A stretch of 64,000 bases of DNA from Squalus acanthias (GCA_030390025.1 CM059432.1:84756001-84820000), one strand, 5' to 3'; shown: positions 11,184 through 56,583, counted from the first letter of the stretch. Numbers and translations are program-made. The notes: generated from the sequence alone by a model not told the origin.

Positions 11184-11355
11184 TTTGTATCTGACGGGGA
11201 GCAGGGACGGGAGGTTACAGAAGAGCTCGAGAGTGAAGAGTCAGAGGGGGACAGAGACATGGAAGTGCGGGGTGGGATGGCATCATGGGAAAGGTTAGTG
11301 AGGGGCAGAAGGAGGGAGAAGGGGCAGCTCCTCAGCCCAAACCTGATGGAAGGAA

Positions 11356-13022
11356 TGTAAGGGATTCTGACCCTGCGTGTCTCGCAGCCTGTGAGATTCA
11401 CGCGGCTCTGTGCAGCCTGTATGTCAGTGCGGGTCTAGGCCTCGTTGCCTGTTCTGGTCTCCAGCCAGTCTGGGAACACTAGACACACCTGTGAGTGGTT
11501 CGAATCACTCTCCCTTACGGTTCTAGACACTGGACTTAGATGCGAGAGCAGTAATGGAGATGAAACTCATGTAGACTCGGTTTGAATGGTACGAAATGGA
11601 AAATCTTTATTGCATGATACTTAAGATTATGAAATACATGTCATAAGCACAGATTAATGACAGTACAATCTTACAAACAGTTATATAGTCGATCTTAGGG
11701 AAACGAGGAACGAACGGCACAAAGTAAATAGGGGCACACATTACAAATATCCTTAATCCTTAAACCCTCCCCTATCAATATCTATCCTAAACTAGATTCG
11801 TAGGATCTCGAGACTCATGCTCACCACTCGTGATAACTCGGAGAAATTCCGAATAGCTGATCGGATGTTTTTCACCGCAGCACCCACGTGTCGGTCAGGA
11901 GATCTCCTGGTCCCACTTGTTTACTTGCTTCTGCTGCTCCGGCTAGCAGGCTGGAACGTCTGCTGTGATGAAGACCTGTGTTGGTTGGTTTAACAGGTAC
12001 TTTTCGAGCACAGTTGTCGATATCATCGATACGATATGTTTCTTTGCAAGTTCGAAGAAGTCTTCCTGGCAAGGAAAACTTGGCTAATCGACCTACAGGC
12101 GCGGTCGGGATTTACTGACCGTGGCGATGGATATGGTCTTCCTCTCTTCTCATCTCATCTCATCTCATCTCATCTCATCTCATCTCGGGCCTTTGGTTCC
12201 GCTGCCAGTTACCAACATAGGTCTTCGTTACGCGACACGAGGTAGATCCGAACGGATCAGAAAGTTCAACAGTCTTTTCAGAAGAGGCAACAGGCAAGCA
12301 GAAGCGAGCCCAACTACGAGTACACAGGAGCAGCCACGAGGTTACGAAAACAAGAGCACAGGAGCAGCCACGATGATAAGAGCAGCAAGAGAAAGATGGA
12401 CGGTTTGGAGCCTGCAATTATAGTGCAAAATCTTCCGTTTCCCGCCCAACTATAATGTCCATTCTTTTGTTTAGGGTCTGGCGCTCAAATGTCTTGTATG
12501 GGTGATCTCCGTTCTTAATGGGTTTCGGGGCTACTCGTAAATGTCTGAGTACCTGTTAATATTTCTCCCATTGTTAAATCGGTCGGTGTTCTCCCTGGAG
12601 GGGTTTGGGGCTTCCAAGTGTCCTGTATAACTACCTGCTAACGGCTCTCTCATCGTAGAGTCGTTGGGATTTTACATATTAATGTCTTTTGGATGGGCCC
12701 TTGATTACTCGGTACAATGGCTTTCCTTTGTACCTGGGAGACCGATTTCAGTATCTATGTGTATACTGCAAACCCATAATGTCTCGTGTATTATCTTCAC
12801 TGTGCTGAATCTTAATCGATCTTGCACAAATGTTTATTGGAACGCCATCTTGTCTGCCTGTTGAAAAGTCTAGAATGTTCTGTCACGAGGTGCGGCGGCC
12901 ATTTTACAGGCTGCTTGTGTCCACTTTAAACCTGCCAGCATTCTGCTGAAATAAAAGCTGTTTGAACGAAACTCTGTGTTTTCTCCTTATTAATAAAATC
13001 GCGATATATTGCGAATTCTACA
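11356..13022 (-). repeat. 3' LTR (1667 bp)
   Basis: Direct repeat of 22477-24138; termini TGTA...TACA; contains (TCTCA)7. Confidence 0.97.
11606..11611 (-). terminator. Candidate polyadenylation signal AATAAA in the 3' LTR
   Basis: AATAAA on the minus strand about 250 nt before the LTR end; a second AATAAA at 12833-12838 makes the choice tentative. Confidence 0.5.
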
Positions 13023-13472: not shown

Positions 13473-15824
13473 TCACACGGTGCTTTCATCGTGCACGCGC
13501 ACGTAACGTTCTCGCCACTCTCCCGTGTTTTCATGCTTGGTGAGGCGCTTGTCTCTTTTACAATGTACGACCAATAGGTACACTACAATGAAAACTTGGC
13601 ATACGACTAAAATGTGGGAGGCTATTCTGATCCATGAAGGCACTTCAATATTGGTGAACAGATTCCACCACGGTGGAACTACTATATCCAAAATGTCTGT
13701 TCCTATTTCGACAGTTTTCTGTTCTAATGTGTAAAAGTGTTTCTGTGACACCGCGACGGCTTTTAAAAGCTTGGTGAGGTGTTCAGGGAGAGGGGGAATG
13801 AGGTATCCAAAATGCGCGACGAATCGCTGCAAGTCGGTGAAATTCTCTTTTACTGTGAGATGAACAGTGGATGGTTCAGGGATTGGGATAATTCGCTGTT
13901 GTGCTACTTGAACTTCCGCCCTGGGTTTAAAACAGAAACTGCTGTCACTCACCGGACACCGGCTACGGTTTCCATGCTGGTAGTGTTGCGCTGCAGTGGT
14001 AACACAATATGTTCCACCCCCGATGTATGCTACCTGCGGAGGCACATGATCTTGTGCCATTGCCTCCATGGTGCAATTCATGGACTTGGCGCCAGTCGTT
14101 CTGAACCCGCACTGTGGTGTTAAAAAGGCATTCAAGTGCTGGGGGCACAGTATTATGTGTGCTCCCCTGCCACGACAACCAGAGAGATCTGTACCTGTCA
14201 TCGTTTGCTCCCAGCGGATGACGTAAGGTGGAACCGCTGCATAACGAATGTGGGCTCCCCCCTGAATGACACCAATGTTCTCTACCCGATATACCGGGGC
14301 GGGCTTTGCTGTGTCGCCCAAAACCGGCATGCGTAATACTATTCCCATAATAGTATGGTTTGAACGTCCGCAGTCCACGGGGACTGGGTAAGCTTCTGAA
14401 GCTAGCCTGAGCTGGCACGGACTTAATGCGTTCTGAAAAGGGTGGAGCGCCCGCAGGTGTTTGTTACTTATCCAGGACGGAACCAAACCTTGTTTTAAAT
14501 CCTCCAAATTACTGCGGCCCTCGCCCAGTAACCACGCCCCGTAAAGCACGCACACCTCGTTCTGCGCAGCTTGATCGGATGCATTCCGATCTTCCCTAAT
14601 CAGGGCATTTACCGTCTTTGCATGTTTCTCCAACTCTGCTATAATTTCCTTTAAATGGAGAGTCATGGCTTGGTCCTCGTGTAGACCCGACCCTACCACT
14701 TTATTCTCATCTGTTAGAATGTCCTTTAATTGTGTCTTTAAACCATTAATCTGGGTCTGCAGCTCCACACTGTCTAGAGCGTTGACCACAGATGTACCCG
14801 TGTTAAAAGCAGTGAACGCATCGTTCACCAAACCCCTTCTTTGCCTCCCTGCTTGATTCAAAACTTCCTGTGGTGCGGTGTACAAACTTGTCTTATCAAT
14901 TTCCGCGAAATCGAATTCGTAAAATTGTCTGAACATCTTGGTCAACAGGACCTGATACAACTGTTCCGTCTTTTTGGGGCACCACTCTGGTAACCGCACC
15001 TCGGTGAGATTTAAAATCACCGAGGCCACCGCGTAATGTACCCCCTGAAATAGTATCTGGTCTGTGGGGACCAGTACCAAACCATTCCCGGGTCCCTTAC
15101 TAGTTTTAGGGCACCCTTCTTCCTCAGCTAGAACCACCGGAATCGTGGGCGGGGCTTTGCGTGGGCGCGTAATGAGCTCAGTGGCATTTACTGGGATCGG
15201 GGAGAATGGGGCTCCGCACCCCCTGGTGCTCGCATCCCACCTCATCCCCTGTCCGTTATCCTGCCATTGATTAATGAAAAATATGGAGATGCCTTTGGGG
15301 CAAACGTACTTTGACCCCCACATACATACATAAATTCCCTCATCCGGTTCCCACCATTTGTCCCAACAGACTTTCACTTGTCCGTCTGTCCCCGTAATTG
15401 TCCGATGGGTATTATTACCCAGTCGTTCCCACTCGACCGAAGAGTTCCTCATAGTGTTGCTCAGCTTTCGCAGCCACCACCATCGGCTCAATGGGACCTT
15501 CCCACTACAAGTCAAACAAATCCGTTTGCCGACGGTGACGCTGATCCTGGGTGCGATGATCCTTACTTTGGGGCACAGTAAAGAAGTCTCTTTGTAGGCA
15601 AACCCCGATGTGCTGGAATACTCCGTTGAGTTCGTTCCCAGCCATCCTGGCCACCTTCCCTTGTGGAAATAGGTGCTGGTCTCCTCTGCCTCCCGTCTTC
15701 CGGTCCCATCCACCGCGATGGGGGCCGTGTCCCCGGAACATCCAAACACCACGACATCCTTGGTGCGGCCTCGATAGGCCAATCCACATCCGATTGCCAC
15801 GAGCAATACTAGAATTCGTTCCAT
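13473..15824 (-). CDS. env: Env glycoprotein, 783 aa: signal peptide, Ig-like domain, F-type class I fusion protein with furin site, TM anchor
   Basis: ATG at 15824 opens a hydrophobic signal MERILVLLVAIGCGLA. Several NxS/T sites; RQRR/GLV cleavage at 14835-14846 followed by a heptad region and a Cys-rich block; TM ILVVCQVFIVVYLLVV; short tail. Confidence 0.92.
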   Translation of the reverse strand: MERILVLLVAIGCGLAYRGRTKDVVVFGCSGDTAPIAVDGTGRREAEETSTYFHKGRWPGWLGTNSTEYSSTSGFAYKETSLLCPKVRIIAPRISVTVGKRICLTCSGKVPLSRWWWLRKLSNTMRNSSVEWERLGNNTHRTITGTDGQVKVCWDKWWEPDEGIYVCMWGSKYVCPKGISIFFINQWQDNGQGMRWDASTRGCGAPFSPIPVNATELITRPRKAPPTIPVVLAEEEGCPKTSKGPGNGLVLVPTDQILFQGVHYAVASVILNLTEVRLPEWCPKKTEQLYQVLLTKMFRQFYEFDFAEIDKTSLYTAPQEVLNQAGRQRRGLVNDAFTAFNTGTSVVNALDSVELQTQINGLKTQLKDILTDENKVVGSGLHEDQAMTLHLKEIIAELEKHAKTVNALIREDRNASDQAAQNEVCVLYGAWLLGEGRSNLEDLKQGLVPSWISNKHLRALHPFQNALSPCQLRLASEAYPVPVDCGRSNHTIMGIVLRMPVLGDTAKPAPVYRVENIGVIQGGAHIRYAAVPPYVIRWEQTMTGTDLSGCRGRGAHIILCPQHLNAFLTPQCGFRTTGAKSMNCTMEAMAQDHVPPQVAYIGGGTYCVTTAAQHYQHGNRSRCPVSDSSFCFKPRAEVQVAQQRIIPIPEPSTVHLTVKENFTDLQRFVAHFGYLIPPLPEHLTKLLKAVAVSQKHFYTLEQKTVEIGTDILDIVVPPWWNLFTNIEVPSWIRIASHILVVCQVFIVVYLLVVHCKRDKRLTKHENTGEWRERYVRVHDESTV

Positions 15825-16136: not shown

Positions 16137-19100
16137 TTAAATTCTGAGAAGGCTGCTGCGAGCTCTTCCCGACGGTGGGAGGGCACTGACCCTTCCCTCT
16201 GATCTGCCGCAGCCTGTTGCTGCGCTGACCCTTCCCTCTGATCTGCCGCAGCCTGTTACTGCTGCGATGTGGCCGGTCTGTATCTGGGTTATCTTAACCT
16301 TAAATTTTCGCCTTGGGGCAGTCTGGGGACATGACCACATCCTCCTGGGCTGGGGTTCTCTACCTGACCTACGGGGAGTTGCTATGGGCGGGGGTTCCGT
16401 GACGGACGGACCGGGTTCCGAGACTTCCATCGGGATGACCTGGGGTTCCATCACAGTCGCTGGCTCCGCCTCCGCTGACTCCGCCTCCCTAACCTCGGGG
16501 CTGGCAGTTCGTGGCTCCGCCCTGCTTGGCCCAGCAGGCGGCCCTTCACTCGTGATCTCTGCCTCCCCTGAGGACTGGACGTTCAAAGCGGGCGGCCACA
16601 TCTCTGGGAGCCACACCGGTACTCTCTGTGCTCCCATAGCGGCTGGCCCTGCCTCCTCTAGCTCCTCCCTCCTGTCTTCGGGACCTGCAGCTTGGGTGTC
16701 CACCCTGTGTTGATCTCTACCTACAGCCCCCATTCCCTCCAGACCGTTCCTCAGAAACCACCCGTCATCATCACTATTCTCATCTGCACTATCCTCATCT
16801 GACCAGGGTGCCCTGAATTCTTCCTCATCTAACCCCCAATTCCAGAAAAACGCTGCATGATCGTCCGGGATGTCCCTTCCCCTGATGCAAGCTGCTATGC
16901 CTGCCTGTGTGCCTTGTGGTCCTACCTGGGGCTGTGCTTTCCCGTTGGCGGGATTTACCCCTGTAGTTTTCCCTTGCGCACCTGGCTGGTACAGTTTGCA
17001 TTGGTTTATGTGGAACCACTTAGTGCGCCGTGGTACTTTTACGGCGTAAACCATGGGACTCGCCTTGTCTACAATGTTGTAGGGTCCCATATACAGTGGT
17101 TCCAGACTCCCTACTCTGGCATAGTTTCTGACCATGACCTGGTCTCCCACTTCCCACTCCCGCGTTTTGCGGGGTTCCAGCAACAAGCGATTGCCCTGAT
17201 GCTGCCTTCCCATGTTCCCAGCCGCCTGCTCATAAACTTGCTTCAGGCGCTCCAAGAGAGTCTGGGCGAACTTGTCCCTGCTTATCTCTTGGAGCTGACC
17301 CTCAGTGAGCACCGGGGCTAGCACATGGGTGGGGGTTCGCATGAGCCTGCCGGTCATTACCTCGTGCGGGGAGTACCCCGTACTTTTTGACTGACTGGCC
17401 CGGACCCCCATGAGGACTAAAGGCAGAACTTCCGCCCATTTTTGGGGCGAGTTCCTAGTCTCTTTCCTCAATTTCTCCTTCAGGGTCCGGTTCATACGTT
17501 CAACAATCCCGGATGACTGGGGATTGTGTGCTACGTGCCACTTCCCTTCAATGCCCAAAAGCATGAGGGTGGTCTGCATCACCTGGCCGGTGAAATGACT
17601 CCCTTGGTCTGACTCCACAAAACGGGGGAGTCCCCACCGCGAGAACACTTCCCGGACCAAGATTTTTGCTGTACCTAGTGCCGTAGCTGTTCGACAAGGG
17701 AAGGCTTCCACCCACTTGGAAAACACATCCACCAGGACGAGGCAGTACTTATAACCTCCCTGGGTGGTGGGCAGGGGTCCTATATAGTCGATCTGTATCG
17801 ACTGCCATGGTCCCTCTACCCTTCTTACGTGTCCCATGGGCACCTTCCTTTTCTGGGGGTCTGGGTTGTTTGCAGCGCACACAAGACAGTTTGCACAGAA
17901 CTCGCGGACTTGTTCCCTGAGCCCTGGCCACCATCCCGCTTGCTCTACCCGTTGCCAGGTAACCTCGGGCCCGGGGTGCCCTGCCCCTGGTCCCTCGTGA
18001 GCCAACTGGAGGAATTCCCTCCTGTGCTGCTGTGGCACAACCCACTGCTCCTCGCGGAACAGCATGCCTTCCTTAACTGAGAGGGTTGCCGTACTGTACG
18101 GACCTTCTACCTGTCTCCCCTCAGCAATCGTTTTTAGGACTGCTTTTAGGGCGGGATCCTGGGCTTGGACGGTCTTAAGGTCTAGGGGCAATGCTACCCT
18201 GGTGTTCCCGGGATTCCCGTCCCCGCCTCGGACCGCTGCTATGGGTCCGGCCCTATAGGGGTTCCAGAAAGTGCCGTCGCGGGCACCTTCCCTGGCTAGC
18301 GCATCCGCCTGCCGGTTGCCTTCCCCACGGGGCTCTGTGGAGGAGTGAGCTTTCACCTTATGGATGAAAATCTCTCCTTCCTCCCCTACTGCTGCTGCTA
18401 AGATCTTTTCCAGCAAGGGCTTCACCGTTAAAGGTCGCCCGTCCGCGGAGGTGTATCCGCGGCGGGACCAAATGGCCAGGTATTCCGTACACGAATTGCA
18501 GGTGAACATACTGTCCGAGCAAATCGTGTATGGGGTTGGGAAAATGTCTGGGTGGGTCACAACGTACACCACGGCAGACAGCTCAGCTTGCTGCGCGCTC
18601 ATGGTGCTAGGGAGCTTGATCGCCAGGGCAAGGTCTGCCGCAGGGTCATAAACTCCACACCCTGTGAGTCGCTCGCCAGCAGATACTGTGCTAGACCCAT
18701 CAACATAAATCTCGCGCCCATTGGGATGTATCCCGGCCCGTAAACCTATGTTGACGTCCCACACCCCTTCCACCGAACACCGGTGGGCTGTACCGGGGTA
18801 TACCAAATTGGCCGCAAGCCTGGGCTCGCAAAGACCTTTTACTCTAAGATCCAACTGGGAGAGAAGAAGGGTCCAACGCGCAATGCGCGCGCTGCTTACG
18901 GTCCCGTCTTTAATCCTCCCATCCAGAAGCATCTTAGTTGGTGTGTGATGTGTGAGGAGAGTGATGGGAGAGAGCCCTGTGAAGATCGCTGATCTTTTCA
19001 CAGCCCAATGCGTGGCTAAAAGGTGCCTTTCGCAATTGGAGAAACTTCTCTCCACATCCGTTAACACCCTGGATGAATAGACAACCGGCCTCAGCTTGCC

Positions 19101-20660
19101 GTGACGCTCTTGGAGCAGCACGGCGCTTAAGCTGTCTCCGCTGGCAGCTACCTCCAGGAAAAACTCCCTCCCCCCATCTATGGCCCCTAAGGCTGGCGCG
19201 GTCTGCAGATCCCTTTTTAACTTCTCGAAGGCTGCTTGGCAGCCCTCGTCCCAAAACCACTCCACCCCCTTATGGAGGAGTCGGAGGAGCGGCGCTGCTG
19301 TGGCCGCATAATCTTCGATAAAATCCCTGCAGTAACCGGTCAGTCCCAAGAAGGACCTCACACCCCTTACGTTGTTGGGAATCGGTAATTCTTGCACCGA
19401 CTCCCTCCTTGCTTTGTCTATGGCTCTTTCCCCAGCGCGTATGGTCAGTCCCAGGAATTTTACTTCCCGCTGACCGATACGTGCTTTCTTAGGATTTATT
19501 TTAAAACCCTTTCTCGCTAGCAGCTCCAATAACTCGTCCAGTAGTGGTCCATGCTCCTCCCTTGAGTCCGTAAATAGGAGCAAATCATCCACATACTGCA
19601 CTATCTGATTGGGCTGACTAAACTCCTTTAAACTTCCTGCCATACACTGATGAAAAATACTGGGGCTATTGTGGAAACCCTGTGGCAGACAGTTCCACGT
19701 GTACTGTTGCCCTTTGAAAGTAAAGGCAAACTTGTACTGGTCCTCTCGCCGCAGCGGGATGGACCAAAAACCGTTCGAGATATCCAGCACCGTGAACGTG
19801 GTCGCGGACGCTGGGATGCTCCCTATTAGGTCAGCAACTGCTGCTACTGTGGGCGCGCAGGCGGGAATGTTACTGTTAAGGACTCTGTAGTCCACCGTGG
19901 CTCTCCACGAATTATCCGGCTTCCTAACCGGCCATAATGGGGAGTTCACGTGTGTGGCTATCGGCCTCAACACGCCCTGCTGCACCAAGGAGGACATTGC
20001 TGTCTCCATATCGGGTTCTGCTTCTTTGGGGAAGTTATACTGCTTTTGGGGTCGGGTCATGGGGTCCCCATCTATGCTGACCTCAAACCCGACCACTCTC
20101 CCACAATCGTGCTTGTGGGTTGCAAACGCGTGCATATTATCTGACACGTACGTTTGCATGTCCGTTGGGACATCTGCGACCATAAGCCTGAGGTCGTAGC
20201 CTCCGGATGGCTGTACGGTACACAGGACCCCTGTTTCTTCCTCCCCCGGAATCACTATTACCTCGCCTTTTTCACCTTTAGCCCCCCAGAGACAGTGATT
20301 TCTGAGGTCCACGAGGATCCCGTGTCCCGCTAGGAGATCGGACCCGAGAATACCTCTTCCACCCCCCTTTTGCCATGCCATCAGTATACACTTCCACTTA
20401 AGGCGAAGTGTTCCTAAACGAATGGATAGCGGAAGGGAAAACGTGCCAGCCTGTTCTTTTCCTGTGAACCCTGCTAACGTGAATGGGACCTTGGTAGATA
20501 GCGGCGAGTCAAAAGGGTTATCAGTATGGATTATGGTGCAAGAAGCTCCCGTGTCCAACAAATAACTACCCTTCTGTTTCTCTACCTCCATCTCCACCAC
20601 AGGTCGCCTCCACGCATCATAGCTAAGCGGACACAGGTAGACGGGCTGCGCCGGTTCTAG
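16137..20660 (-). CDS. pol: Pol polyprotein (PR, RT, degenerate RNase H tether, RNase H, integrase, C-terminal extension), expressed by readthrough from gag
   Basis: LLDTGAS protease; LDISNGF, LPQGF and YVDD RT motifs; YVDGS..AEL..SDS..GNRQAD RNase H; HHCC, D-D-E (QIDY, SDQG, VERMN) and GPY integrase motifs. The frame is open from the codon right after the gag stop. Confidence 0.96.
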   Translation of the reverse strand, partial: LEPAQPVYLCPLSYDAWRRPVVEMEVEKQKGSYLLDTGASCTIIHTDNPFDSPLSTKVPFTLAGFTGKEQAGTFSLPLSIRLGTLRLKWKCILMAWQKGGGRGILGSDLLAGHGILVDLRNHCLWGAKGEKGEVIVIPGEEETGVLCTVQPSGGYDLRLMVADVPTDMQTYVSDNMHAFATHKHDCGRVVGFEVSIDGDPMTRPQKQYNFPKEAEPDMETAMSSLVQQGVLRPIATHVNSPLWPVRKPDNSWRATVDYRVLNSNIPACAPTVAAVADLIGSIPASATTFTVLDISNGFWSIPLRREDQYKFAFTFKGQQYTWNCLPQGFHNSPSIFHQCMAGSLKEFSQPNQIVQYVDDLLLFTDSREEHGPLLDELLELLARKGFKINPKKARIGQREVKFLGLTIRAGERAIDKARRESVQELPIPNNVRGVRSFLGLTGYCRDFIEDYAATAAPLLRLLHKGVEWFWDEGCQAAFEKLKRDLQTAPALGAIDGGREFFLEVAASGDSLSAVLLQERHGKLRPVVYSSRVLTDVERSFSNCERHLLATHWAVKRSAIFTGLSPITLLTHHTPTKMLLDGRIKDGTVSSARIARWTLLLSQLDLRVKGLCEPRLAANLVYPGTAHRCSVEGVWDVNIGLRAGIHPNGREIYVDGSSTVSAGERLTGCGVYDPAADLALAIKLPSTMSAQQAELSAVVYVVTHPDIFPTPYTICSDSMFTCNSCTEYLAIWSRRGYTSADGRPLTVKPLLEKILAAAVGEEGEIFIHKVKAHSSTEPRGEGNRQADALAREGARDGTFWNPYRAGPIAAVRGGDGNPGNTRVALPLDLKTVQAQDPALKAVLKTIAEGRQVEGPYSTATLSVKEGMLFREEQWVVPQQHRREFLQLAHEGPGAGHPGPEVTWQRVEQAGWWPGLREQVREFCANCLVCAANNPDPQKRKVPMGHVRRVEGPWQSIQIDYIGPLPTTQGGYKYCLVLVDVFSKWVEAFPCRTATALGTAKILVREVFSRWGLPRFVESDQGSHFTGQVMQTTLMLLGIEGKWHVAHNPQSSGIVERMNRTLKEKLRKETRNSPQKWAEVLPLVLMGVRASQSKSTGYSPHEVMTGRLMRTPTHVLAPVLTEGQLQEISRDKFAQTLLERLKQVYEQAAGNMGRQHQGNRLLLEPRKTREWEVGDQVMVRNYARVGSLEPLYMGPYNIVDKASPMVYAVKVPRRTKWFHINQCKLYQPGAQGKTTGVNPANGKAQPQVGPQGTQAGIAACIRGRDIPDDHAAFFWNWGLDEEEFRAPWSDEDSADENSDDDGWFLRNGLEGMGAVGRDQHRVDTQAAGPEDRREELEEAGPAAMGAQRVPVWLPEMWPPALNVQSSGEAEITSEGPPAGPSRAEPRTASPEVREAESAEAEPATVMEPQVIPMEVSEPGPSVTEPPPIATPRRSGREPQPRRMWSCPQTAPRRKFKVKITQIQTGHIAAVTGCGRSEGRVSAATGCGRSEGRVSALPPSGRARSSLLRI

Positions 20661-22472
20661 TCATGGGGTACTATTAGACGGTCCTGCGGCACCTACGGGG
20701 CCGGTTGCGACCGCCACCTGTCCACGCGCATTCAAGACCAGCTTGCGCATGGCTCCTAACACTGCTTCGAGGTCGTCCGGAGGGGTGGGTGCACTAGCTT
20801 CCCTAGCCGGGACAGGCGCCTGGGCTCGGACCGCGGGATTTTTATCCTTGGAATCCTTCCAAGGGTTCCTGCAATGCTTGCGCCAGTGCCCTGTCTTCCC
20901 ACACCCGTAACAAGCATTACTTGCCTGTGGGGCGCGATTACCCTCCTGATGCCACTCTCTTTGATACGGGGCTGCGGGTCGTACCTCATGTACTCTTCCC
21001 TTAAGGGGACGTGTTGCCATACCCCTTATATTGCGATAACCTAACGTGAGTCGATTCAAGACCGACTCTTCCGTAATGTTGGGGTCATTGGGATCAAACC
21101 ATGCTTTTGCCTGCTCTCTGACGGCTGGTAAACTGTTGGCTATTATGCACCTAAGCCAATGAGTTAAAGCGGTGCCTTCCACATCTTCGCGCTCGGGCGC
21201 ACCTAGGCAGCTGCGCTCATATACTGGCCACAGCCTGTCGGCAAAAACCTTCGGGGGTTCTCCCTCCATCTGCACTGTCTGTCCCACTCTAGCAAACGGA
21301 CCTTCGTCGTTCGCCCCCAACACTTCTAGGACCTCATTCTTTAATTCCTCATAACTCTTGGTTCCCCTCTTGCTCTCGCCTGAGAGACACTGAAGGACCG
21401 AGCTGTCTAATGAGAACAGCAGCATTTTTGCTGTCTCCCCATCATCGCAGCCGTTAATGGCTGCGGCTTGCTCAACTTCTCTGAAATGTACGGAAGGGTC
21501 GTCTGCCTCGGTCAGCTTCCGTACGTGATTTATCATAGCTCTCAGCTGATGTGAACTGTGAGGCAACACCAACTGTCCGAGGAGATCCCCCGGTTCTTCC
21601 CCACCGTTTCTGCTTGGGCCCCTTTTAATACCCGTTACTGGATACAACGATCCCTTTCCTACTTCTTTTTCAATGGGCTCTTTTGTTTCTTCCATTGCTT
21701 CCTCCCTAACCCAGGTTTCTGAATAGCTGGGTGGCGCGGAGGGCGCAGTGGCTACTACTTCTTCTGCTTTACTTGGTGGGGATTTTCTAAATCTCTCATT
21801 TACTAGCGGCTGGTGTGCCGACGGATTGATAAGGCACACCATGCCGTTCGCATTGTTCACGGCCTTTTTGAGGTGCTCTATCTCCCTTTGGCAGGCGCTA
21901 TGATCGGCTCCCTGAAACTTATCCTCAAGGGCCAACTTATATGCCGCCCTAACCCCCGTTAAGCTCTCTTCTTGAGTTCTTATCTGGGCAGCTTGGCGGT
22001 TACATCTTTCCTTTAACCTGCTTTCATTCAACTTCGCCTCAGTGACCTGGCACTCGAGATAATCTATCCTTGTTTTAAGGTGACTGGAGACTTCCTGGCT
22101 TTCTTGGTTCAACTCATTTAAATTCTTAATGAGCACCTCTCCTCCAGAAACCTTCTCATCCATTTCTCCCTCTAAATGACTGATTCGAGCTACTAGCGCT
22201 GTAATGGTCTGGTTTGAAATCTGAACCTGCCTTTTGTAACACATAAGCCAGACTGCTTTCTCAAGTGTCTTTCTATGTTCTTTACTATCTGTCCACCTTT
22301 CAGCTGCCTCTAGTGGGCTTTTATCCGCTAACAATTCACTTATCCATTTCTTAGTTAGATTAACCTTTCCAAACACATAATCCGCTATCTTTTCCTGCAT
22401 AACATTTCGTACAGTCATTCCAAAATCTAACACACTACCCTCTCGCTGCCAGTGTCCTGCCGCGGTCGCCAT
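20661..22472 (-). CDS. gag: Gag, 603 aa: N-terminal coiled coil, late domain, capsid-like region, one CCHC knuckle
   Basis: Strong Kozak AAAATGG; heptad-rich aa about 80-205; PSAPPSY; MHR-like QMEGEPPKVFADRL; CYGCGKTGHWRKHC. Confidence 0.95.
   Translation of the reverse strand: MATAAGHWQREGSVLDFGMTVRNVMQEKIADYVFGKVNLTKKWISELLADKSPLEAAERWTDSKEHRKTLEKAVWLMCYKRQVQISNQTITALVARISHLEGEMDEKVSGGEVLIKNLNELNQESQEVSSHLKTRIDYLECQVTEAKLNESRLKERCNRQAAQIRTQEESLTGVRAAYKLALEDKFQGADHSACQREIEHLKKAVNNANGMVCLINPSAHQPLVNERFRKSPPSKAEEVVATAPSAPPSYSETWVREEAMEETKEPIEKEVGKGSLYPVTGIKRGPSRNGGEEPGDLLGQLVLPHSSHQLRAMINHVRKLTEADDPSVHFREVEQAAAINGCDDGETAKMLLFSLDSSVLQCLSGESKRGTKSYEELKNEVLEVLGANDEGPFARVGQTVQMEGEPPKVFADRLWPVYERSCLGAPEREDVEGTALTHWLRCIIANSLPAVREQAKAWFDPNDPNITEESVLNRLTLGYRNIRGMATRPLKGRVHEVRPAAPYQREWHQEGNRAPQASNACYGCGKTGHWRKHCRNPWKDSKDKNPAVRAQAPVPAREASAPTPPDDLEAVLGAMRKLVLNARGQVAVATGPVGAAGPSNSTP
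22454..22471 (-). other. Primer binding site, tRNA-Arg(TCG)
   Basis: TGGCGACCGCGGCAGGAC is the complement of the 3' 18 nt of vertebrate tRNA-Arg(TCG) (GTCCTGCCGCGGTCG-CCA, recalled sequence); 5 nt from the LTR end. Confidence 0.88.
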
Positions 22473-22476
22473 TTTC

Positions 22477-24138
22477 TGTAAGGGATTCTGACCCTGCGTG
22501 TCTCGCAGCCTGTGAGATTCACGCGGCTCTGTGCAGCCTGTATGTCAGTGCGGGTCTAGGCCTCGTTGCCTGTTCTGGTCTCCAGCCAGTCTGGGAACAC
22601 TAGACACACCTGTGAGTGGTTCGAATCACTCTCCCTTACGGTTCTAGACACTGGACTTAGATGCGAGAGCAGTAATGGAGATGAAACTCATGTAGACTCG
22701 GTTTGAATGGTACGAAATGGAAAATCTTTATTGCATGATACTTAAGATTATGAAATACATGTCATAAGCACAGATTAATGACAGTACAATCTTACAAACA
22801 GTTATATAGTCGATCTTAGGGAAACGAGGAACGAACGGCACAAAGTAAATAGGGGCACACATTACAAATATCCTTAATCCTTAAACCCTCCCCTATCAAT
22901 ATCTATCCTAAACTAGATTCGTAGGATCTCGAGACTCATGCTCACCACTCGTGATAACTCGGAGAAATTCCGAATAGCTGATCGGATGTTTTTCACCGCA
23001 GCACCCACGTGTCGGTCAGGAGATCTCCTGGTCCCACTTGTTTACTTGCTTCTGCTGCTCCGGCTAGCAGGCTGGAACGTCTGCTGTGATGAAGACCTGT
23101 GTTGGTTGGTTTAACAGGTACTTTTCGAGCACAGTTGTCGATATCATCGATACGATATGTTTCTTTGCAAGTTCGAAGAAGTCTTCCTGGCAAGGAAAAC
23201 TTGGCTAATCGACCTACAGGCGCGGTCGGGATTTACTGACCGTGGCGATGGATATGGTCTTCCTCTCTTCTCATCTCATCTCATCTCATCTCATCTCATC
23301 TCGGGCCTTTGGTTCCGCTGCCAGTTACCAACATAGGTCTTCGTTACGCGACACGAGGTAGATCCGAACGGATCAGAAAGTTCAACAGTCTTTTCAGAAG
23401 AGGCAACAGGCAAGCAGAAGCGAGCCCAACTACGAGTACACAGGAGCAGCCACGAGGTTACGAAAACAAGAGCACAGGAGCAGCCACGATGATAAGAGCA
23501 GCAAGAGAAAGATGGACGGTTTGGAGCCTGCAATTATAGTGCAAAATCTTCCGTTTCCCGCCCAACTATAATGTCCATTCTTTTGTTTAGGGTCTGGCGC
23601 TCAAATGTCTTGTATGGGTGATCTCCGTTCTTAATGGGTTTCGGGGCTACTCGTAAATGTCTGAGTACCTGTTAATATTTCTCCCATTGTTAAATCGGTC
23701 GGTGTTCTCCCTGGAGGGGTTTGGGGCTTCCAAGTGTCCTGTATAACTACCTGCTAACGGCTCTCTCATCGTAGAGTCGTTGGGATTTTACATATTAATG
23801 TCTTTTGGATGGGCCCTTGATTACTCGGTACAATGGCTTTCCTTTGTACCTGGGAGACCGATTTCAGTATCTATGTGTATACTGCAAACCCATAATGTCT
23901 CGTGTATTATCTTCACTGTGCTGAATCTTAATCGATCTTGCACAAATGTTTATTGGAACGCCATCTTGTCTGCCTGTTGAAAAGTCTAGAATGTTCTGTC
24001 ACGAGGTGCGGCGGCCATTTTACAGGCTGCTTGTGTCCACTTTAAACCTGCCAGCATTCTGCTGAAATAAAAGCTGTTTGAACGAAACTCTGTGTTTTCT
24101 CCTTATTAATAAAATCGCGATATATTGCGAATTCTACA
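22477..24138 (-). repeat. 5' LTR (1662 bp)
   Basis: Direct repeat of 11356-13022; adjacent to the PBS; contains (TCTCA)6. Confidence 0.97.
23533..23565 (-). promoter_or_regulatory. Candidate LTR core promoter (GC box GGGCGGGAA then TATAAT)
   Basis: Minus strand reads GGGCGGGAAACGGAAGATTTTGCACTATAATT; motif evidence only. Confidence 0.35.
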
Positions 24139-24491
24139 GGAAGAGGCTGAAACTGCAGGGAAGGTTCAAACAAGAGGTGAAAAAGAGCTGGAGGCTGCAG
24201 GAGAAAGCAACAGCTGCCCGAAAAGTTGGGAAGGAGCATGAGAGGAGGGAAGGGGGGATGGGGGGATTATCAGGCACACTTCCCTTATTTGGAGCCATGA
24301 TTACTGATCAATTTTTAAAGTACATTAGATTAGTATATGTTATGGGAGACAAATTAAACTTCAGGTTTTGATGCTAATATGTGGTGGAGGAATGGCTGTG
24401 CAGAGCGGCGGAATGGATTTGTATGATACAGTGGAATGGTCACGATGTTGTAAATGTTTTTAATGTTCAATAAATAATATATATTTAAAAA

Positions 24492-31038: not shown

Positions 31039-34000
31039 TGTAATATATGTGGGTAGAACAAATGAAGGACAGAGACACGGTGAGTTGCTAGTCAAGGTGC
31101 TTGTTTATTAGGCCAGAGCGAGCCGAGCATGCTCAGACTAAACCATGTGACAAACCATGTGATAATACATTACACTGCTTTCCTCTTAAAAAAAAGTACA
31201 TATTTCCCTCAAATACAACAAAACTATGGTCCCACCTTTCCCAGCATTAAATGTACCACATAACAAAAACGCCTGGCGTTTTTTCGTTTAAATCAACAAC
31301 AAATGCTACAAATGAACTACAAATCCAGTTTAATAGCAGGTTTACGGAGCCTTCCTGATCTCCTTACAAAAGGTTTTGGTGTTGAACCAATTTTCGGGCT
31401 GTTTTGTTCTGGTTCCGAACTCAAAAATGATCCTGTTTCTATCTCAGATTTGTTTGAACCTGGTACTTCAGTTTCTGAAGTCTGAGCAGAGTCAAACTCA
31501 TGTATGTGTTCATCATCAAGTGGTTCAAGATCATGTCTTGGTTCATCTCTAGCAGAGATCCTTTGATCTACATGAACACTTCAATCTCCTCTTCATCAAG
31601 AGTTCTGCTGGGGTATATCCAGTTGTAGTGTGCGGAGTAGTTCTGTACTTCAGCAAGTAATCTACCATGTTTCTTCATGCTGAGTCCCAAACAACCCTGC
31701 AACACTTGCTTTTTGAGAGCTTCTTTCACTATTCTGACTGACCTTTTGGCTGCTCCGTTTGAAGCTGGATGATATGGTGGAACAAACGCGTGTTTGATAC
31801 CATTCCATTTCATGAACTCTTGAAATCGAGCAGAACGGAACTGAGGGCCATTGTCAGAAACAAGCTCTTCAGGTAAGCCATGACAGGCAAAGATAGACCT
31901 CAACTCATCTATGGTACGTTCAGTTGTAGTATTTGAACCCGTGTTTCACTTCAATCCACTTTGAGTGACTATCTACAAGTACCAGAAAATAATCATTTGC
32001 TTTCTCACAGAAGTCTACATTTACTCTCTGAAAAGGTCTACTTGGCCATGACTAGGGTTGTAGTGGAGTTTTGAGTGGTTTGTTTCTGCAATTTTGGCAA
32101 ACGCTGTATTTGCTGACAAGTGATTCAAGATCACTGTCCAATCCAGGCCAGTAAACAATTGATTTCATACTGACGATCCCTGGATGTTCAGTATGAAGTT
32201 CGGCCAGAATTCTATCTCTCAAAGAAGTAGGTACCGCCACTTTGTTTCCCCACTTGATACAACCTTGCTCACAAGACAATTCAGTATGACAGTTATGGAA
32301 TGGTTTCAACCCTGTGTCCAGACACTGATCAGTCCATCCATTCAAGGTGTTTTCATACACTCTTTTCAGTACTGAGTCCTTTTGAGTCTCATCTGCAATT
32401 TCAGCTGCATTCACGGGAAAGTCTTTGTCAACTGCACCTAGCGTGAAACTAACACCTTTAATCCCAACACGAGTCCTCATGTGGCAACCAGGACAAGGCA
32501 TCTGTGGTTGCGTTTTGCTTTGAAGTGCGATATTCAATCGTGTAGTCATATTGTGGCAACAACACTGCCCAACGTTGCATTCCTGATGTGGCCATTGCAG
32601 GGATGGCAGATTTGGGCTCGAATATTGCTAGGAGCATTTTGTGATCGGTTATCAAGGTAAACTTTCTGCCAATCAGGAACTGTTGGAATTTCTTGATTCC
32701 AAACACTATGGCGAGTGCTTCCTTTTCAATTTGCATGCAGTTTCTTTCGTTCTTTGTGAGGGTTTGCGATGCAAACACAATTGGTTTCTCTTGGCCATCA
32801 TCCATTACGTGGCTTATGACAGCTCCCACACCATAGTTAGAAGCATCACACGCTAACTTAAGCTCACGCTCTGTGTCGTAGTGCACCAGTAGAGCATCGT
32901 TAGAGAGACTTCTCTTACAAGCGTCGTAAGCTTCCTGTTGCGTTTTTGTCCACTTTCACTGGACATCCTTCTTGAGGAGCTCGTGCAGTGGAGCTAACAT
33001 GGTCGCTAACGCAGGTAAGAAACGTGTGTAGTACTGGACCATTCCAAGGAAAGATCTAAACTCAGACACGTTCTGTGGCTTTGGAGCATTGATGACAGCA
33101 TCAACCTTTTCCTTAATTGGTTGCAAGCCATTTGCATTAACTTTCAGACCAAAGTACACAACCTCAGGCTGCACAAAAGCACATTTGCTCCTTTTCAATT
33201 TGACATTGTGGGAATTCAACCTCTGAAGCACTAAATCTAACACCTCTAGATTTTCTTCCTCGCTGCTTGTTGCGATCAGCACATCGTCTTGATTGCATAA
33301 GCAATTTAGAATTCCTTGCAAAATCTTATCCATTGTAGCCTGGAAGATTTTGGGGGAGGACTTTATACCATACGGCAGCTTGGTGTCTGAGTACAGTCCC
33401 TTGTGTGTGTTGATGGCGAGATACTATTGACTCTTTTTGTCAACATTCAGTTGAGCAACAGGTCAAGTTTAGAGAAAACCTTTGACCCAGAGAGTGCTGC
33501 ATACAAACCTTGCAATATAGGTAACGGGTACTGCTCATTGTCAATTGCTTGGTTGATAGTAACTTTGTAGTCACCGCACAAGCGTACAGATTTGTCTGCT
33601 TTGGGCACTACCACAATCAGGGTAGCCCATTGACTTTTGTCAGTTTTTATTCGCACTCAGTTATGTCTCAGTTTCTCAAGCTCTTCCTCCACCTGATTTT
33701 TCAACGCATAGGGGACCGGCCTTGCCTTACAATAGACAGGCTTCCCGTTGGACTTGATGCGGATATGCGCGTCATACCTAGTGATGCCCTCATAACTGTC
33801 TGTGAACATGCTTTTATACTTGTTCAGCATTGTGTCGAGTCACTTCTTTGAAGCATCTACACTGAAGACGTTTTCCCAGTCTAGTTTTAACTTTCTCAAC
33901 CAGTCTTTGCCCATGAGGGTTGGCCTGTTGTTGTAGCTCACTACAATAATAGGCAGCTTTACTGACTGGCCATTGTGCTGAGCTGTACATTCCATTTGTC

Positions 34001-35700
34001 CACATGTCTCTAGGCGGGTGACTGTCTGTGTGGAGTTTGCACATTCTCCCCGTGTCTGCGTGGGTTTCCTCCGGGTGCTCCGGTTTCCTCCCACAGTCCA
34101 AAGATGTGCGGGTTAGGTTGATTTGGCTATAATAAATTGACCCTTAGTGTTAGGGGGATTAAATACGTGGGGTTACGGGGATAGGGTGGGATATGTGTCG
34201 GTGCAGGCTCGATGGGCCGAAATGGCCTCTATCTGCACTGTGGGGATTCTGTGATTCTGTGATTCTGTGATTTCTCCGGAGTAGGTTTTTAACTCTACGG
34301 TACTCTTTGTAAGTGGTATTTGATTAAACTTACTCTCATATGTGTCCTTAGTCATGATAGAGCAGTCCGCCGCTGTGTCAATACACATATCAATATATTG
34401 GTCATTGATCAAAAGTTTTGTGCGGAAGTCTTTCTCACGACTGCTAGCATTGCCGCTAGTGGAATAGATACTGTAGATGCCTAGTCTTCAACATCAGGTG
34501 TGTTCATTTCAATATTGTGAATTCCTCCCTTTTGTTGTCGTTGCTTTGCGTTGCCACTAGAATGGTTCTTACTTCTTGCTTTCGATCTAGCTCTGCAAGC
34601 TGTTGAAATATGGCCTTGCTTCTGGCGGTGAAAACACTTCGCATTTCTGTATTGGCAGGACTGTGGTGAGTGATTTCCATTGAAGCAATAACAATTCACT
34701 GAACTGCTCTCACCAACATGCTTTTGACTTGGTCTCACAACTTTAGGTTTGGCGGTGGCTTTGTGACTGTAGACCCCAGCTGCACTAGTCACTTGAGTTG
34801 GACGGAGCTCCCTAGCATTCTTAGACGCTATCTCCATAGATAGAGCAATTTTGCATGCTATGTCAAACGTTAGGTTCGGACTGTTCAGTAATTTGGACTG
34901 TGTGCACTCATCCACCAGTCCACACACAAACATATCTCGCAACGCCCGATCTAAAAATGTGCCGAAGTTACAATGCAAAGACAGGTTCTTAAGAGCTGAA
35001 ATGTACTCACTGATGGTTTCACTTTCTTTTTAGTTTCTGGTATCAACGCTGTAGCTCTCTGCTATTTCTAATGGCTTTGGGTTGAAATGGTCCTCGAGTT
35101 TCTCGACAATGTCTTCAAACGATGCATCCTTCGCTTTCCCTGGCTTGAGTAGGTTTGTCAACGTTCCGTAGACATCTGGCCCAATCTCCGTTATAAAAAT
35201 TGCATTTTTACATTCACGAATTACTTTATTTTGAGTTTGAACAGTCTCATCTGCACCTTCGGTCTCAATAATGTTATAGGCCTTAAAAAACATCTCCATC
35301 CACTCAATGTAAGAACTGAATCGTTCGCGAGCTCGGTCATACATGCCGAGGCTTCCGATGAATCCCATAGACGCAGCCATGTTTGTCCCAATCCCGTTGA
35401 ACAGTGACTCAGCACGCTACCTGTGTACCTGTGAGAATCAACGCCACTGTTGCTGTGTTTACATACACACAAAGACGAAGCACAGATAATTCTGCATCAG
35501 CGTTAACAGTAAAACATCGCAAAAAAATCAGCTTAGATGCCACAAAATCAACTTAAACTTTTCCACTCGAAGGCTGAACACTGTGTCCTTCCATGATCCC
35601 TAAAAATGGCTTTGGGATCCCATTCTCGTACCCAAAAATGTAATATATGTGGGTAGGACAAATGAAGGACATGTGACAAACCATATGATAATACATCACA
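31039..35700 (-). mobile_element. Decayed Ty3/Gypsy LTR retrotransposon with short LTRs (31039-31174; 35639-35700 internally deleted)
   Basis: 5-bp TSD GTAAT; gag fragments with CCHC remnants, IDTAA protease, RLCGDYK/QDD RT, CDAS..EKEALA..TDH RNase H, SDNGPQF..YHPASNG integrase; many stops and frameshifts. Confidence 0.92.
34011..34270 (+). mobile_element. V-SINE (HE1-like), 5'-truncated, nested in the Gypsy
   Basis: V domain GTGTGGAGTTTGCACATTCTCCCCGTGTCTGCGTGGGTTTCCTCCGGGTGCTCCGGTTTCCTCCCAC and CR1-type (GATTCTGT)n tail. Confidence 0.88.
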
Positions 35701-47676: not shown

Positions 47677-48167
47677 TAACTTCTTTGCTTTTATATTCAG
47701 TGTTCCTATGTATAAAACCTAGAATTCCATTTGGGATTTTTTTTTGTCAGCTGGGTATCTGACAAAAGCAAAAAAAAATCACTGTATTTAAGAGTCTCCA
47801 ATTTAAGCTGTTTAGAAAACTACACCCACTTATAGGATTTATGTTTGGCTAATATGGAGCGAACATACTCTTCCTATAGGGACACATTCCACTTACCCAA
47901 GTCCAGAGAGCTTGGGCACAGGTTGGCAGAGCCAAGGCTTAGGAACTCCCAAGTGTGCACAGAGGTACTGCTGCAATTTAGTCAGTGAAACACATGCAAC
48001 ACGGAGCACTGATAAGCTACCCACTACATGTTCAGCTAAGACCATACTGCCCATTGCATCATTGATTTACATGGTTATCTGCATCAACTGAGTAAAATCC
48101 AGCTCTAAGTGATAGGTCTACACCTTCCAGGTCCAATAGTGAGCCCGGCCATCTGGTTAATCATTAG

Positions 48168-48665
48168 AATTCAGCCAATTCGATTCACTCCATGTGATAT
48201 CAAGAAACGGCTGAGCGCACTGGATACAGCAAAGGCTATGGGCCCCGACAACATCCCGGCTATCGTGCTGAAGACTTGTGCTCCAGATCTAGCCACGCCT
48301 CTAGCCAAGCTGTTCCAGTACAGCTACAACACTGAAATCTATCCGACAAAGTGGAAAATTGCCCAAGTATGTCCTGTCCACAAAAAGCAGGACAAATCCA
48401 ACCCGGCCAATTACCGCCCCATCAGTCTACTCTCAGTCATCAGCAAAGTGATGGAAGGTGTCATCGACAGTGCTATCAAGCGGTACTTACTCACCAATAA
48501 CCTGCTCACAGATGCCCAGTTTGGGTTCTGTCAAGACCACTTGGCTCCCGACCTCATTACAGCCTTGGTCCAAACATGGACAAAGGTGCTGAATTCCAGA
48601 GGTGAGGTGAGAGTGACTGCCCTTGACATCAAGGCCGCATTTGACCGAGTGTGGCATCAAAGAGC
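48168..48665 (+). mobile_element. CR1-group LINE internal RT fragment
   Basis: KAMGPDNIP...NYRPISLLS...QFGF...LDIKAAFDRVWH, then an abrupt switch to Harbinger sequence. Confidence 0.85.
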
Positions 48666-49086
48666 TTATGGTGTGTGCTGCACCGGACACCATCTTGGTG
48701 AGGGCAGTAGAGCGGGCGTTAGGAGCGTGCACTGGAAGTATGCAGAGTGCGCTGATCGTGACACCAATCAGCATGCAACGCTGATTTGACGCTAACGCTG
48801 CCATTTTGGTTGTCAAGGCTGGAGATAATGCCTTGTGTTAATCACACACAGCTGAACATGCGTTCAGCATCAACAAGGATCCCCTACCAGCGATATTTAT
48901 AGGGATCAGCAACCACTCTAAGGTTAGTTGCTGATTGATTTCTACTGGCTCTGTGCATGTTTGTGGAACTGTTTGGAGCTTTCTAGAGTTGTTTAAAGTT
49001 GGTGAGGTGACAGGGAGTGGTGCTGCAAGTGGAGAAGGCCTTGCTACTGACTTCAAGGATTTTAGTCAGAGCACTTGCTCCCAATC

Positions 49087-50185
49087 ATGGGTGTGCTAGT
49101 TGCCATTTCCCTTGGCCTGCAGCATGACAGGGAAATGGAGCAGAGGAAGCGAAGAAGAGGAAAAGCTTCACACAGAGGGAGGGGGAGGAGGGGGAGAAGG
49201 GCTCTCAAAAGGAGGCCTTACCCACCTTGGGTCTTCCGAGAGCAATTCTCTTACCTCGGCCTGAGCCAGGAACAGTATGTGAGGCGTGTGAGCTTTACAA
49301 AGAAGGTGCTCACAGAACTCTGCCACCTCTTTCAACCAGCCTCACATCAGGGCAAGGACAGCGCTGCCAGTGACTATGAAGATGACTGTAGCCCTGAATT
49401 CCTTTGTGTCAAGATCCTTCCAGGCTGGAGCAGGCTACATCTGTAACATCTCACAGTTCACTGTCCACTGCTGCATAAGAGAGATGACTGACGCTCTTTG
49501 TTCCAGGCGAGGGGACTTCATTGTCTTCTCTCTGAATAGAGAGAAGCAGGCGGAGTGTGCACGTGGTTGTGCCAGGTAGCGGGTTTCCCCATGGTGCAGG
49601 GCACCATCGACTGTGGCTTTGTGGGCACTGCATCTAAATGCTGAGATGTACCGCAACCACAAAGGTTTCCATTCACTCAATGTGCAGTTGGTGTGCGACC
49701 ATGCTCAGCATATCATGATGGTGAATGCCCAGTATCCTGGCAGCAGTCATGATGCTTTTATTTTGCGCCAGTCTGCTGTTCCTTCAGTCTTTGAGCCACC
49801 ACGACAAACCAGAGGCTGGCTGCTATGCGACAAGGGCTATCCCTTGAACACTTTGCTCATGACTCCACTCTGCAACCCAACCACATGCGGCCAGCATGCG
49901 TAAAATGAGAGCCATGCTGCCACACGAAATATCATCGAGCAGACCATTGGGGTGCTGAAGCAATGGTTCCGCTGCTTGAACCGCCCTGGAGGAGCCCTGC
50001 AGTATTCACCAGAGTGCATCTCAAGATTCGTCGTGGTCTGCTGCATGCTCCACTACCTCGCCATCATGAGGGCACAGCCCTTGCCACCAGGAGGAGGAGG
50101 AGGAGGAGGAAGGGAGGAGGCAACCCAGACAGCCCCTTTCTGCCATGCTGTCCGTGATCGACTCATCCGACTGCGGTTCCAGTGA
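49087..50185 (+). pseudogene. Harbinger DDE transposase (HARBI1-like), disrupted
   Basis: GTIDC, YRNHKGFHSLNVQLVCD, YPGSSHDAFIL, LLCDKGYP, RNIIEQTIGVLKQWFRCL; stops and frameshifts. Confidence 0.88.
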
Positions 50186-50652
50186 ACGCAACCCCAATTC
50201 CGCATTCACCAACAGTCCCACATCTTACCATCCCTCTGATATTCACCAACACAGTGTCCTCATGGCCACAATGCTGAAATAAAAGCCAACATAAAGCAAA
50301 AACATCCAAATCAACATTATATAACAATCCATCAAATATTACATAAAAGAGTCAACTAATCACCCTTGTGCATTACCTTAGTGCTTGTCCTCCATGTGTC
50401 TTTGCCTGTCCTAGTACTCCTACAAAGTGTTACCCCAGTGGCTGTCAAATGGCTGGTGGAAGGCTGCTGACTTTCAGTGGGAGAGACTGCAGATGGCCTT
50501 GCAGGATGACCTCGAGCACCTCTAGGCTTAGAAGGCCCGACTGTAGACTGCACCACCTTGGCATGGGCTGCAGCAGTCTGGGCTAGCTGGCTGACAAGCA
50601 ACAGCAAGGGCACTGGCGGAGTGGCATTGGTGGGAGCATGAATGCTGTCATC

Positions 50653-56373: not shown

Positions 56374-56583
56374 CTGAAGAATAAACACAAATACAACCAT
56401 AAAAACCTGCACCACGTCTATATGAAAATTATCATAACATTTATCTTTGTGTATTCTCTTTGTAAATCACCACGGTACTCCCGAACCATTGTTTGTTGTA
56501 GTCTAAAACAACTTTCTGCTACCTAGAGCTACCGGGTCTCAATTCTCCCTGGCTTCCAGCACTGAAAAAAAAAACATTTACAG

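Follow-up and report, generated by a model that had tools for sequence, protein, structure and literature searches.

Organisation of the provirus

The stretch of Squalus acanthias DNA analysed here (64 kb; referred to as the window) carries a complete gag-pol-env endogenous retrovirus (ERV) on its minus strand (Table 1). The two LTRs are identical at 1663 of 1668 positions, with no substitutions and a single 5-nt gap inside a microsatellite. Because the pair is identical apart from this gap, and both a target-site duplication and a primer-binding site (PBS) are present, the insertion is very young. The PBS, putatively for tRNA-Arg, matches 13 of 18 positions of a PBS-like site in L001, a viral contig whose reverse transcriptase (RT) matches the row of snakehead retrovirus (SnRV) in the available part of the PMC7947760 alignment. 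The gag frame opens with an ATG that overlaps the PBS start (22454-22472, minus strand).

The gag gene ends in a TGA stop codon that is in frame with pol, in the context UGA-CUAG (20654-20663, minus strand). UGACUAG is described as a readthrough context of the type II alphavirus/cellular kind, while the retroviral readthrough contexts given in the available text of the same source are UAG-G, UGAAGA, UGACGA, and UGAAGU (PMC13517186). Beyond the integrase, the pol frame continues for about 280 aa (16137-16950, minus strand) as a low-complexity, acidic and proline-rich tail with short direct repeats. Downstream of env, up to the 3' end, there is no ATG-initiated ORF of at least 50 aa, hence no 3' accessory ORF; nor was a separate attachment gene found within the provirus, or a second proviral copy elsewhere in the 64-kb window. 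Unrelated decayed elements lie nearby, recognised by eye from their ORFs as gypsy-like, Penelope-like, and CR1-like (32052-35029, minus strand; 56566-58248, plus strand; 48109-52258).

More than half of the env sequence words are present in 14 public runs from seven studies, none of them recorded as RNA. In three contig sets all 30 bins are covered, at 90-100% identity, a result that says nothing on transcription or splicing.

Table 1. Features of the provirus and of its env gene (positions in the window; aa, residues of the Env ORF).
Feature	Position	Strand	Remarks
Target-site duplication, 4 bp	left copy 11352..11355, right copy 24139-24142	.	
5' LTR	22477..24138	-	TG...CA, 1662 bp
PBS	22454..22471	-	5 nt past the 5' LTR
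gag	20661..22472	-	603 aa; one CCHC knuckle; likely N-terminal coiled coil
pol frame	16137..20660	-	1507 aa: protease, RT, tether (degenerate RNase H), RNase H, integrase with GPY
env ORF	13473..15824	-	783 aa, ATG at 15824 to stop at 13473
Likely signal peptide	15777..15824	-	aa 1-16; assigned by hydrophobicity only
N-terminal extension	15120..15776	-	aa 17-235
Possible Ig-like domain	15315..15563	-	aa 88-170; C...W...DxGxYxC pattern
F2-like segment	14835..15119	-	aa 236-330; ends with furin-type site RQRR (14835-14846)
Presumed fusion peptide	14778..14834	-	aa 331-349; from its position after RQRR; partly conserved; low pLDDT
HRA/central helix	14490..14777	-	aa 350-445; from model and alignment
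Cys-rich beta domains I and II of F fold	13860..14417	-	aa 470-655; pLDDT mostly 80-96
HRB	13689..13799	-	aa 676-712; low pLDDT in monomer model
Transmembrane anchor	13563..13625	-	aa 734-754; followed by 29-aa tail
Env motifs, F2 part	GLVLVP 15083-15066; VILNL 15020-15006; RQRR 14846-14835	-	one open frame
Env motifs, after cleavage	GLVNDAF from 14834; DLSGC 14189-14175; IILC 14156-14145; PPWW 13676-13665	-	one open frame
3' LTR	11356..13022	-	pair of the 22477..24138 LTR

The env gene encodes a protein with an F-type layout

An initial annotation of the locus had recognised a fusion module of paramyxo/pneumovirus F type at 13560..15095. The feature is real, and every Env motif named there falls in a single minus-strand frame at or inside these bounds, which nevertheless omit the signal peptide and an N-terminal extension of about 220 aa (15120-15824). 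The estimate of about 450 aa after the cleavage site agrees with the 453 residues counted beyond RQRR. The reported absence of CX6CC holds across the Env ORF, as does that of an immunosuppressive motif, with no TLV_coat/ISD-type Pfam family matching at E≤1. The proposed heptad repeats are borne out in part: by raw counts uncalibrated by shuffling, hydrophobic residues occupy six of eight a/d positions at aa 350-376 and nine of 11 at aa 676-712, but just ten of 18 at aa 384-445.

The presumed fusion peptide is only mildly hydrophobic (mean Kyte-Doolittle value 0.51 over 19 aa). Env contains one CXXC, at aa 103-106 inside the N-terminal extension, with no CX6CC partner. In a 33-relative alignment, where each cysteine column of the Cys-rich block is covered by 21-25 relatives, the seven cysteines are present in 19-23 of them. 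Behind the RxK/RR site of three full-length relatives (P0130, P0131, and P0137) come 434-465 residues, again with no CX6CC. This retention of the cysteines, together with the RxK/RR layout of the relatives, places the Env motif set beyond chance. The combination of a furin site, a long Cys-rich subunit, two heptad regions, and a transmembrane anchor is the F-type (class Ib) layout. The hallmark of gamma-type (class Ia) Env, a CX6CC in a short TM subunit, is missing from the long C-terminal subunit found here.

The nearest Env relatives are from skate and sawshark, are 54-77% identical, and point to a cartilaginous-fish host. For the remoter ones, among 44 matches at E≤0.001, the names given are those of two frogs and of sharks from four further genera (eight of the ten clusters looked up bore names). 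Pieces of the env family also occur inside annotated shark and skate host gene models described as Niban-1-like, zinc-finger, and F-box-like (P0002, P0003, P0004, and P0153); these may be annotation chimeras or exonised ERVs.

Predicted fold of the Env fusion module

Residues 236-733 of the window Env were aligned with 33 relatives (alignment A1, 34 rows), chimeric or very short matches being left out. The AF2 monomer model built from A1 has a mean pLDDT of 68.6, with 284 of 498 residues at 70 or above; values are mostly 80-96 in the beta domains and below 50 in the fusion-peptide region and HRB. The predicted model displays the three-domain F fold with intertwined N- and C-subunits, aligning with F from residue 9 to at least residue 417.

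In a Foldseek search of the PDB the top match was the hPIV3 F protein (1ztm; E 1.3e-11, TM 0.43), followed by RSV, Langya, and NDV F, and all listed matches were paramyxo/pneumovirus F. A VIA search likewise returned post-fusion F with Z scores of 12.9, 12.8, and 12.6 (for example 8tvg, 340 residues aligned, rmsd 6.5); all 50 entries listed were paramyxo/pneumovirus F, and the alignment spans model residues 9-417. BFVD matches, all at 9-14% identity, comprised glycoproteins of invertebrate Mononegavirales and of a fish filovirus, baculovirus F, aquatic herpesvirus proteins, and Env models of the walleye epsilonretroviruses WEHV-1 (E 3.8e-7) and WDSV (E 3.2e-4). The filovirus protein, the glycoprotein of Wenling thamnaconus fish filovirus, matches the F-type model at E 1.6e-11. 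ESM Atlas clusters scored 0.92 for Baculo_F and 0.91 for Fusion_gly.

Neither class Ia retroviral TM nor foamy Env was among the structural matches listed, the latter across Foldseek, VIA, and BFVD. At the level of single sequences, no Pfam match to Fusion_gly (PF00523) or Baculo_F (PF12259) was obtained for the window Env at E≤1, or for any of the 18 relatives scanned at E≤0.5, and a phmmer search of the PDB with Env returned two matches only (E 1.6-1.8). The F-type call of the initial annotation thus agrees with the predicted model, whose best matches in the Foldseek and VIA listings were neither a retroviral TM nor an unrelated fold. Judging by this model, the Env product is very probably an F-type (class Ib) fusion protein with the three-domain fold. 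Set against this are TM-scores of only about 0.43 and the weak hydrophobicity of the presumed fusion peptide.

A mechanism can be proposed from what is known of F and of foamy Env (PMC11468914). Following removal of the signal peptide, the Env precursor would trimerise, and a furin-type protease would cleave after RQRR, the F2-like piece remaining within the fold. On triggering, HRA would extend and carry the fusion peptide into the target membrane; HRB would then zip back to form a six-helix bundle. Receptor binding would fall to the N-terminal extension, possibly Ig-like, which would be placed N-terminally as in coronavirus spike.

The N-terminal extension

The extension (aa 17-235) is found only in close cartilaginous-fish relatives. 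In comparisons by hhalign with the N-termini of six other Envs, probabilities were 0.2-3.6%, so that no family-wide homology of the extensions was detected. Within it, aa 88-170 are possibly Ig-like as judged from their sequence pattern: the region gives Pfam Ig_3 at E 0.73 and Atlas Ig clusters at 0.79-0.80, the latter a lead only, and its PDB matches are mostly Ig chains (best E 0.23). Among the relatives, P0155 has an Ig-like N-terminus (V-set, E 0.045), and P0130 bears an Ig-like name in UniRef. An AF2 model of the extension from five close rows reached a pLDDT of 31.9 with a mixed fold, and a VIA search with this low-pLDDT model gave a best Z of 4.7 and no Ig rows; both are uninformative either way on an Ig fold. 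As the provirus has no separate attachment gene, the extension is the likeliest receptor binder, a role for which we consider the chances about even.

Sequence kinship of Env

The A1 profile was compared with the PDB, where 11 sequences were reached at E≤10. Just three of these, the foamy Env entries 8ozh, 8rm1, and 8rm0, fell under 0.01 (E 4.5e-4 to 3.6e-3), and no paramyxovirus F was reached at E≤10. Against the SnRV Env of L001, hmmsearch with A1 gave 8.0 bits, compared with 2.2 for the best of 200 shuffles. By hhalign the same pair aligned with a probability of 95.5 and an E value of 1.4e-8 over 288 colinear columns that run through the furin site, the score being 66.8, whereas none of 60 shuffles exceeded 23.3. 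Pairwise BLASTP between the window and SnRV Envs was not significant (E 0.09). The SnRV Env (L001 6131-9535) has several RxK/RR sites within its long N-terminal region.

By sequence profile, then, the window Env is homologous to foamy and SnRV Env. Since the profile reaches these proteins and not paramyxovirus F, its detectable sequence kin are retroviral. The statement in the initial annotation that the module is not a retroviral SU/TM therefore stands against gamma- and beta-type Env and goes no further, because the best sequence-profile matches are themselves retroviral. With the RT lying near SnRV (see below), the profile match to foamy and SnRV Env, and the fold match of epsilonretrovirus Env, F-type Env therefore appears to extend into orthoretroviruses.

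Phylogenetic placement of the retroviral backbone

The RT was placed in a fast tree of 122 rows and in a mixture-model tree of 48 representative rows picked by us, the latter including no foamy or FLERV RT and four lokiretrovirus (Loki) rows recognised by motif match to published rows. Both trees have the topology (gypsy,(Loki,canonical retroviruses)). The 48-row tree places the window RT within the canonical-retrovirus clade (support 100/99), close to its base, and Loki apart (99/98). The window RT groups there with frog and coelacanth Pols, as a weakly supported monophyletic clade (79/93). A sister relation between this branch and SnRV was not recovered; in AU tests, whose groups were named once a first tree had been viewed, the grouping of the window clade with SnRV was not rejected (p 0.525), while that of the window with Loki was (p 0.0078 and 0.0139). 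The window and SnRV RTs are 44-46% identical.

Other regions of Pol give a more mixed picture. In BLAST comparisons of the integrase, some Loki rows reach 42-43% against 36% for SnRV, and for the tether the figures are 39-40% and 28%. A quick integrase tree joins four of 11 clade members to Loki (SH-aLRT 82), so that placement is mixed for this domain, which is CGIN1-like in Loki. Weighing these results together, we are confident, short of certainty, that the backbone is not Loki. A fair label, from an RT tree without foamy rows, is that of an unclassified basal canonical retrovirus adjacent to SnRV. ERV4 membership was also considered and set aside: the traits given for ERV4 in the available text of Chong et al. 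are no zinc finger, no GPY/F, and a 5-bp target-site duplication (PMC4299795), whereas the window element has a CCHC, a GPY, and a 4-bp duplication.

Origin of the F-type Env

Taking the locus as a whole, it is probably best explained as the env of a very young ERV, whose F-type (class Ib) product was inherited in a deep canonical branch near SnRV and not freshly captured. Had the element instead been a lokiretrovirus, no earlier one would be known in cartilaginous fish, and its Env would be the published Loki Env. Much of the gross architecture agrees with that identity: gag-pol-env organisation, a tether plus RNase H, and an F-like Env with RxK/RR all fit the description of Loki (PMC7947760), the integrase and tether show a fair likeness to those of Loki, the label of close Pols is NYNRIN-like, and the Cys-block pattern matches the published Loki Env rows by eye. 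The RT motif, the RT tree, and the AU tests speak against it. The RT motif of the window is of the LPQGF type and that of the published Loki rows available of the CPFGY/TPFGY type; the Loki rows among the Pol matches listed are 35-38% identical to the window against 42-52% for the frog and coelacanth clade, and five of the 120 matches listed carry Loki motifs; and the grouping is rejected by the RT tree and by the AU tests, with the groups named after the first tree. Short RT motifs had no matches in the portion of the Loki supplement available, a weak result, since a motif broken across two lines of the PDF may be missed. We consider a Loki identity quite improbable. An errantivirus-like Ty3/gypsy element with a baculovirus-F-type env would account for the top Atlas cluster, which is 61% Baculo_F, and for the matching baculovirus F models. 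Such an origin is refuted by the backbone and we give it almost no credence: pol has a tether plus a second RNase H, the RT scores 208 bits against MLV and 197 against foamy virus in the PDB but 144 against Ty3, and the RT falls outside gypsy with support of 100/100.

The initial annotation had further suggested that the envelope was shared with, or acquired from, negative-strand RNA viruses. Shared ancestry with the F of these viruses is upheld and had already been published (PMC7947760, PMC11468914), but acquisition receives no specific support. Independent capture of an F gene, whether its donor was a negative-strand RNA virus or some other virus with F, would agree with the top structural matches, which are Mononegavirales proteins including the fish filovirus glycoprotein, and with the model of PMC9040795, in which separate env gains by Loki and canonical retroviruses are preferred. 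Against it, the matches of the sequence profile include foamy and SnRV Env but no paramyxovirus F, and every viral F match is just 9-14% identical, the identities being alike for Mononegavirales, baculovirus, and herpesvirus F-like proteins. In addition, four or more branches of retroviruses have an F-like Env (published for Loki and foamy virus, and put forward here for SnRV and epsilonretroviruses), so that repeated capture is less parsimonious. We therefore regard capture as unlikely. Sequence kinship points to retroviruses and the closest folds to Mononegavirales, so that these data give no direction for any transfer. Parsimony favours inheritance of the F-type Env within retroviruses, which we hold to be somewhat the better supported view of its history.

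Implications for the evolution of retroviral Env

Four scenarios for the origin of retroviral env have been published (PMC7947760). The F-type Env of a basal canonical retrovirus, its homology to foamy and SnRV Env, and the fold match of epsilonretrovirus Env would favour an F-type ancestor with later replacement, and its presence on a virus likely outside the Loki and foamy branches suggests an old retroviral design rather than a one-off borrowing. We tentatively propose, at slightly under even chances, that F-type (class Ib) Env is ancestral to all retroviruses and that class Ia SU/TM replaced it later inside Orthoretrovirinae. If so, the F-type was kept in Loki, in foamy viruses, in the basal shark, frog, and coelacanth branch, in SnRV, and in the walleye epsilonretroviruses. 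With class Ia as a later replacement, the division into orthoretroviruses with class Ia and foamy viruses with class Ib Env would fail for fish orthoretroviruses. Structure-guided phylogeny could test the idea of an F-type ancestor. The Env of the fish pathogens SnRV, WDSV, and WEHV would also gain a fold assignment, and in the basal branch the N-terminal, possibly Ig-like module would make F a one-protein machine for attachment and fusion.

F-like retroviral Env is already known as a concept, from lokiretroviruses in 2020 and foamy viruses in 2024. What is apparently new, as predicted from sequence profiles and structural models, is that SnRV, the epsilonretroviruses, and a basal canonical branch also have such an Env. 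In the literature searched we found no earlier report of F-like Env for SnRV or the epsilonretroviruses, or on a basal canonical retrovirus branch; Calcraft et al. 2024 (Cell) and Wang, Chen & Cui 2023 (J Virol) may cover these. Modelling of the epsilonretrovirus SU is reported to have failed (10.1101/2021.11.05.467493).

Comparison with known systems

F-like proteins have been found across viral realms in Viro3D, with more expected in Retroviridae (PMC12583693), and errantiviruses commonly carry an F-type env (10.1101/2023.10.26.564294). With the paramyxo/pneumovirus F proteins (PF00523; 1ztm, 3rki, and 2b9b) the window Env shares the predicted domains I, II, and III, the order F2-furin site-F1, and HRA/HRB. 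It differs from them in its low identity (7-14%) with no Pfam match, in its extra 220-aa N-terminal module, and in having no partner attachment gene.

The F-like Env of lokiretroviruses was reported by Wang & Han 2020, with a signal peptide, RxK/RR site, fusion peptide, coiled coil, and transmembrane region, in elements with gag-pol-env and a dual RNase H (PMC7947760). The window provirus has the same gag-pol-env order with LTRs, tether plus RNase H, and F-like Env with RxK/RR. However, its RT lies outside the Loki clade, and an extension precedes the F2-like part of its Env. According to the available text of the same report, Loki was present in none of three chondrichthyan genomes.

The foamy Env structures 8ozh, 8rm0, and 8rm1, the best sequence-profile matches of the window Env, have the class Ib fold that we predict for it. 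Foamy Gag is not known to carry a CCHC, nor foamy pol to follow gag in frame, whereas the Gag of the window has a CCHC and pol follows in frame. The F fold of foamy Env was described in 2024 by Fernandez et al., who defined class Ib and put orthoretrovirus Env in class Ia (PMC11468914). In foamy Env the receptor-binding domain sits between the subunits (PMC11468914); in the window Env, only 95 aa run from the start of the F2-like segment to the furin site, with the extra module placed N-terminally.

The epsilonretrovirus Envs of WEHV-1 (Q9WHI8) and WDSV (A4GTG3) match the window Env model in a comparison that is model-to-model only, and are much longer, at 1317 and 1159 aa respectively. SnRV, an unclassified member of Orthoretrovirinae, differs from the window element in its 1134-aa Env frame, compared with 783 aa and an own signal peptide in the window env ORF, in its gag-pol stop context (UAG-GGC against UGA-CUAG), and in its 3' accessory ORF, which the window lacks. 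In common with the window it has a single CCHC and a coiled coil in Gag, an in-frame stop between gag and pol, a similar PBS, and an Env in which an N-terminal extension precedes a homologous, colinear fusion module with no CX6CC.
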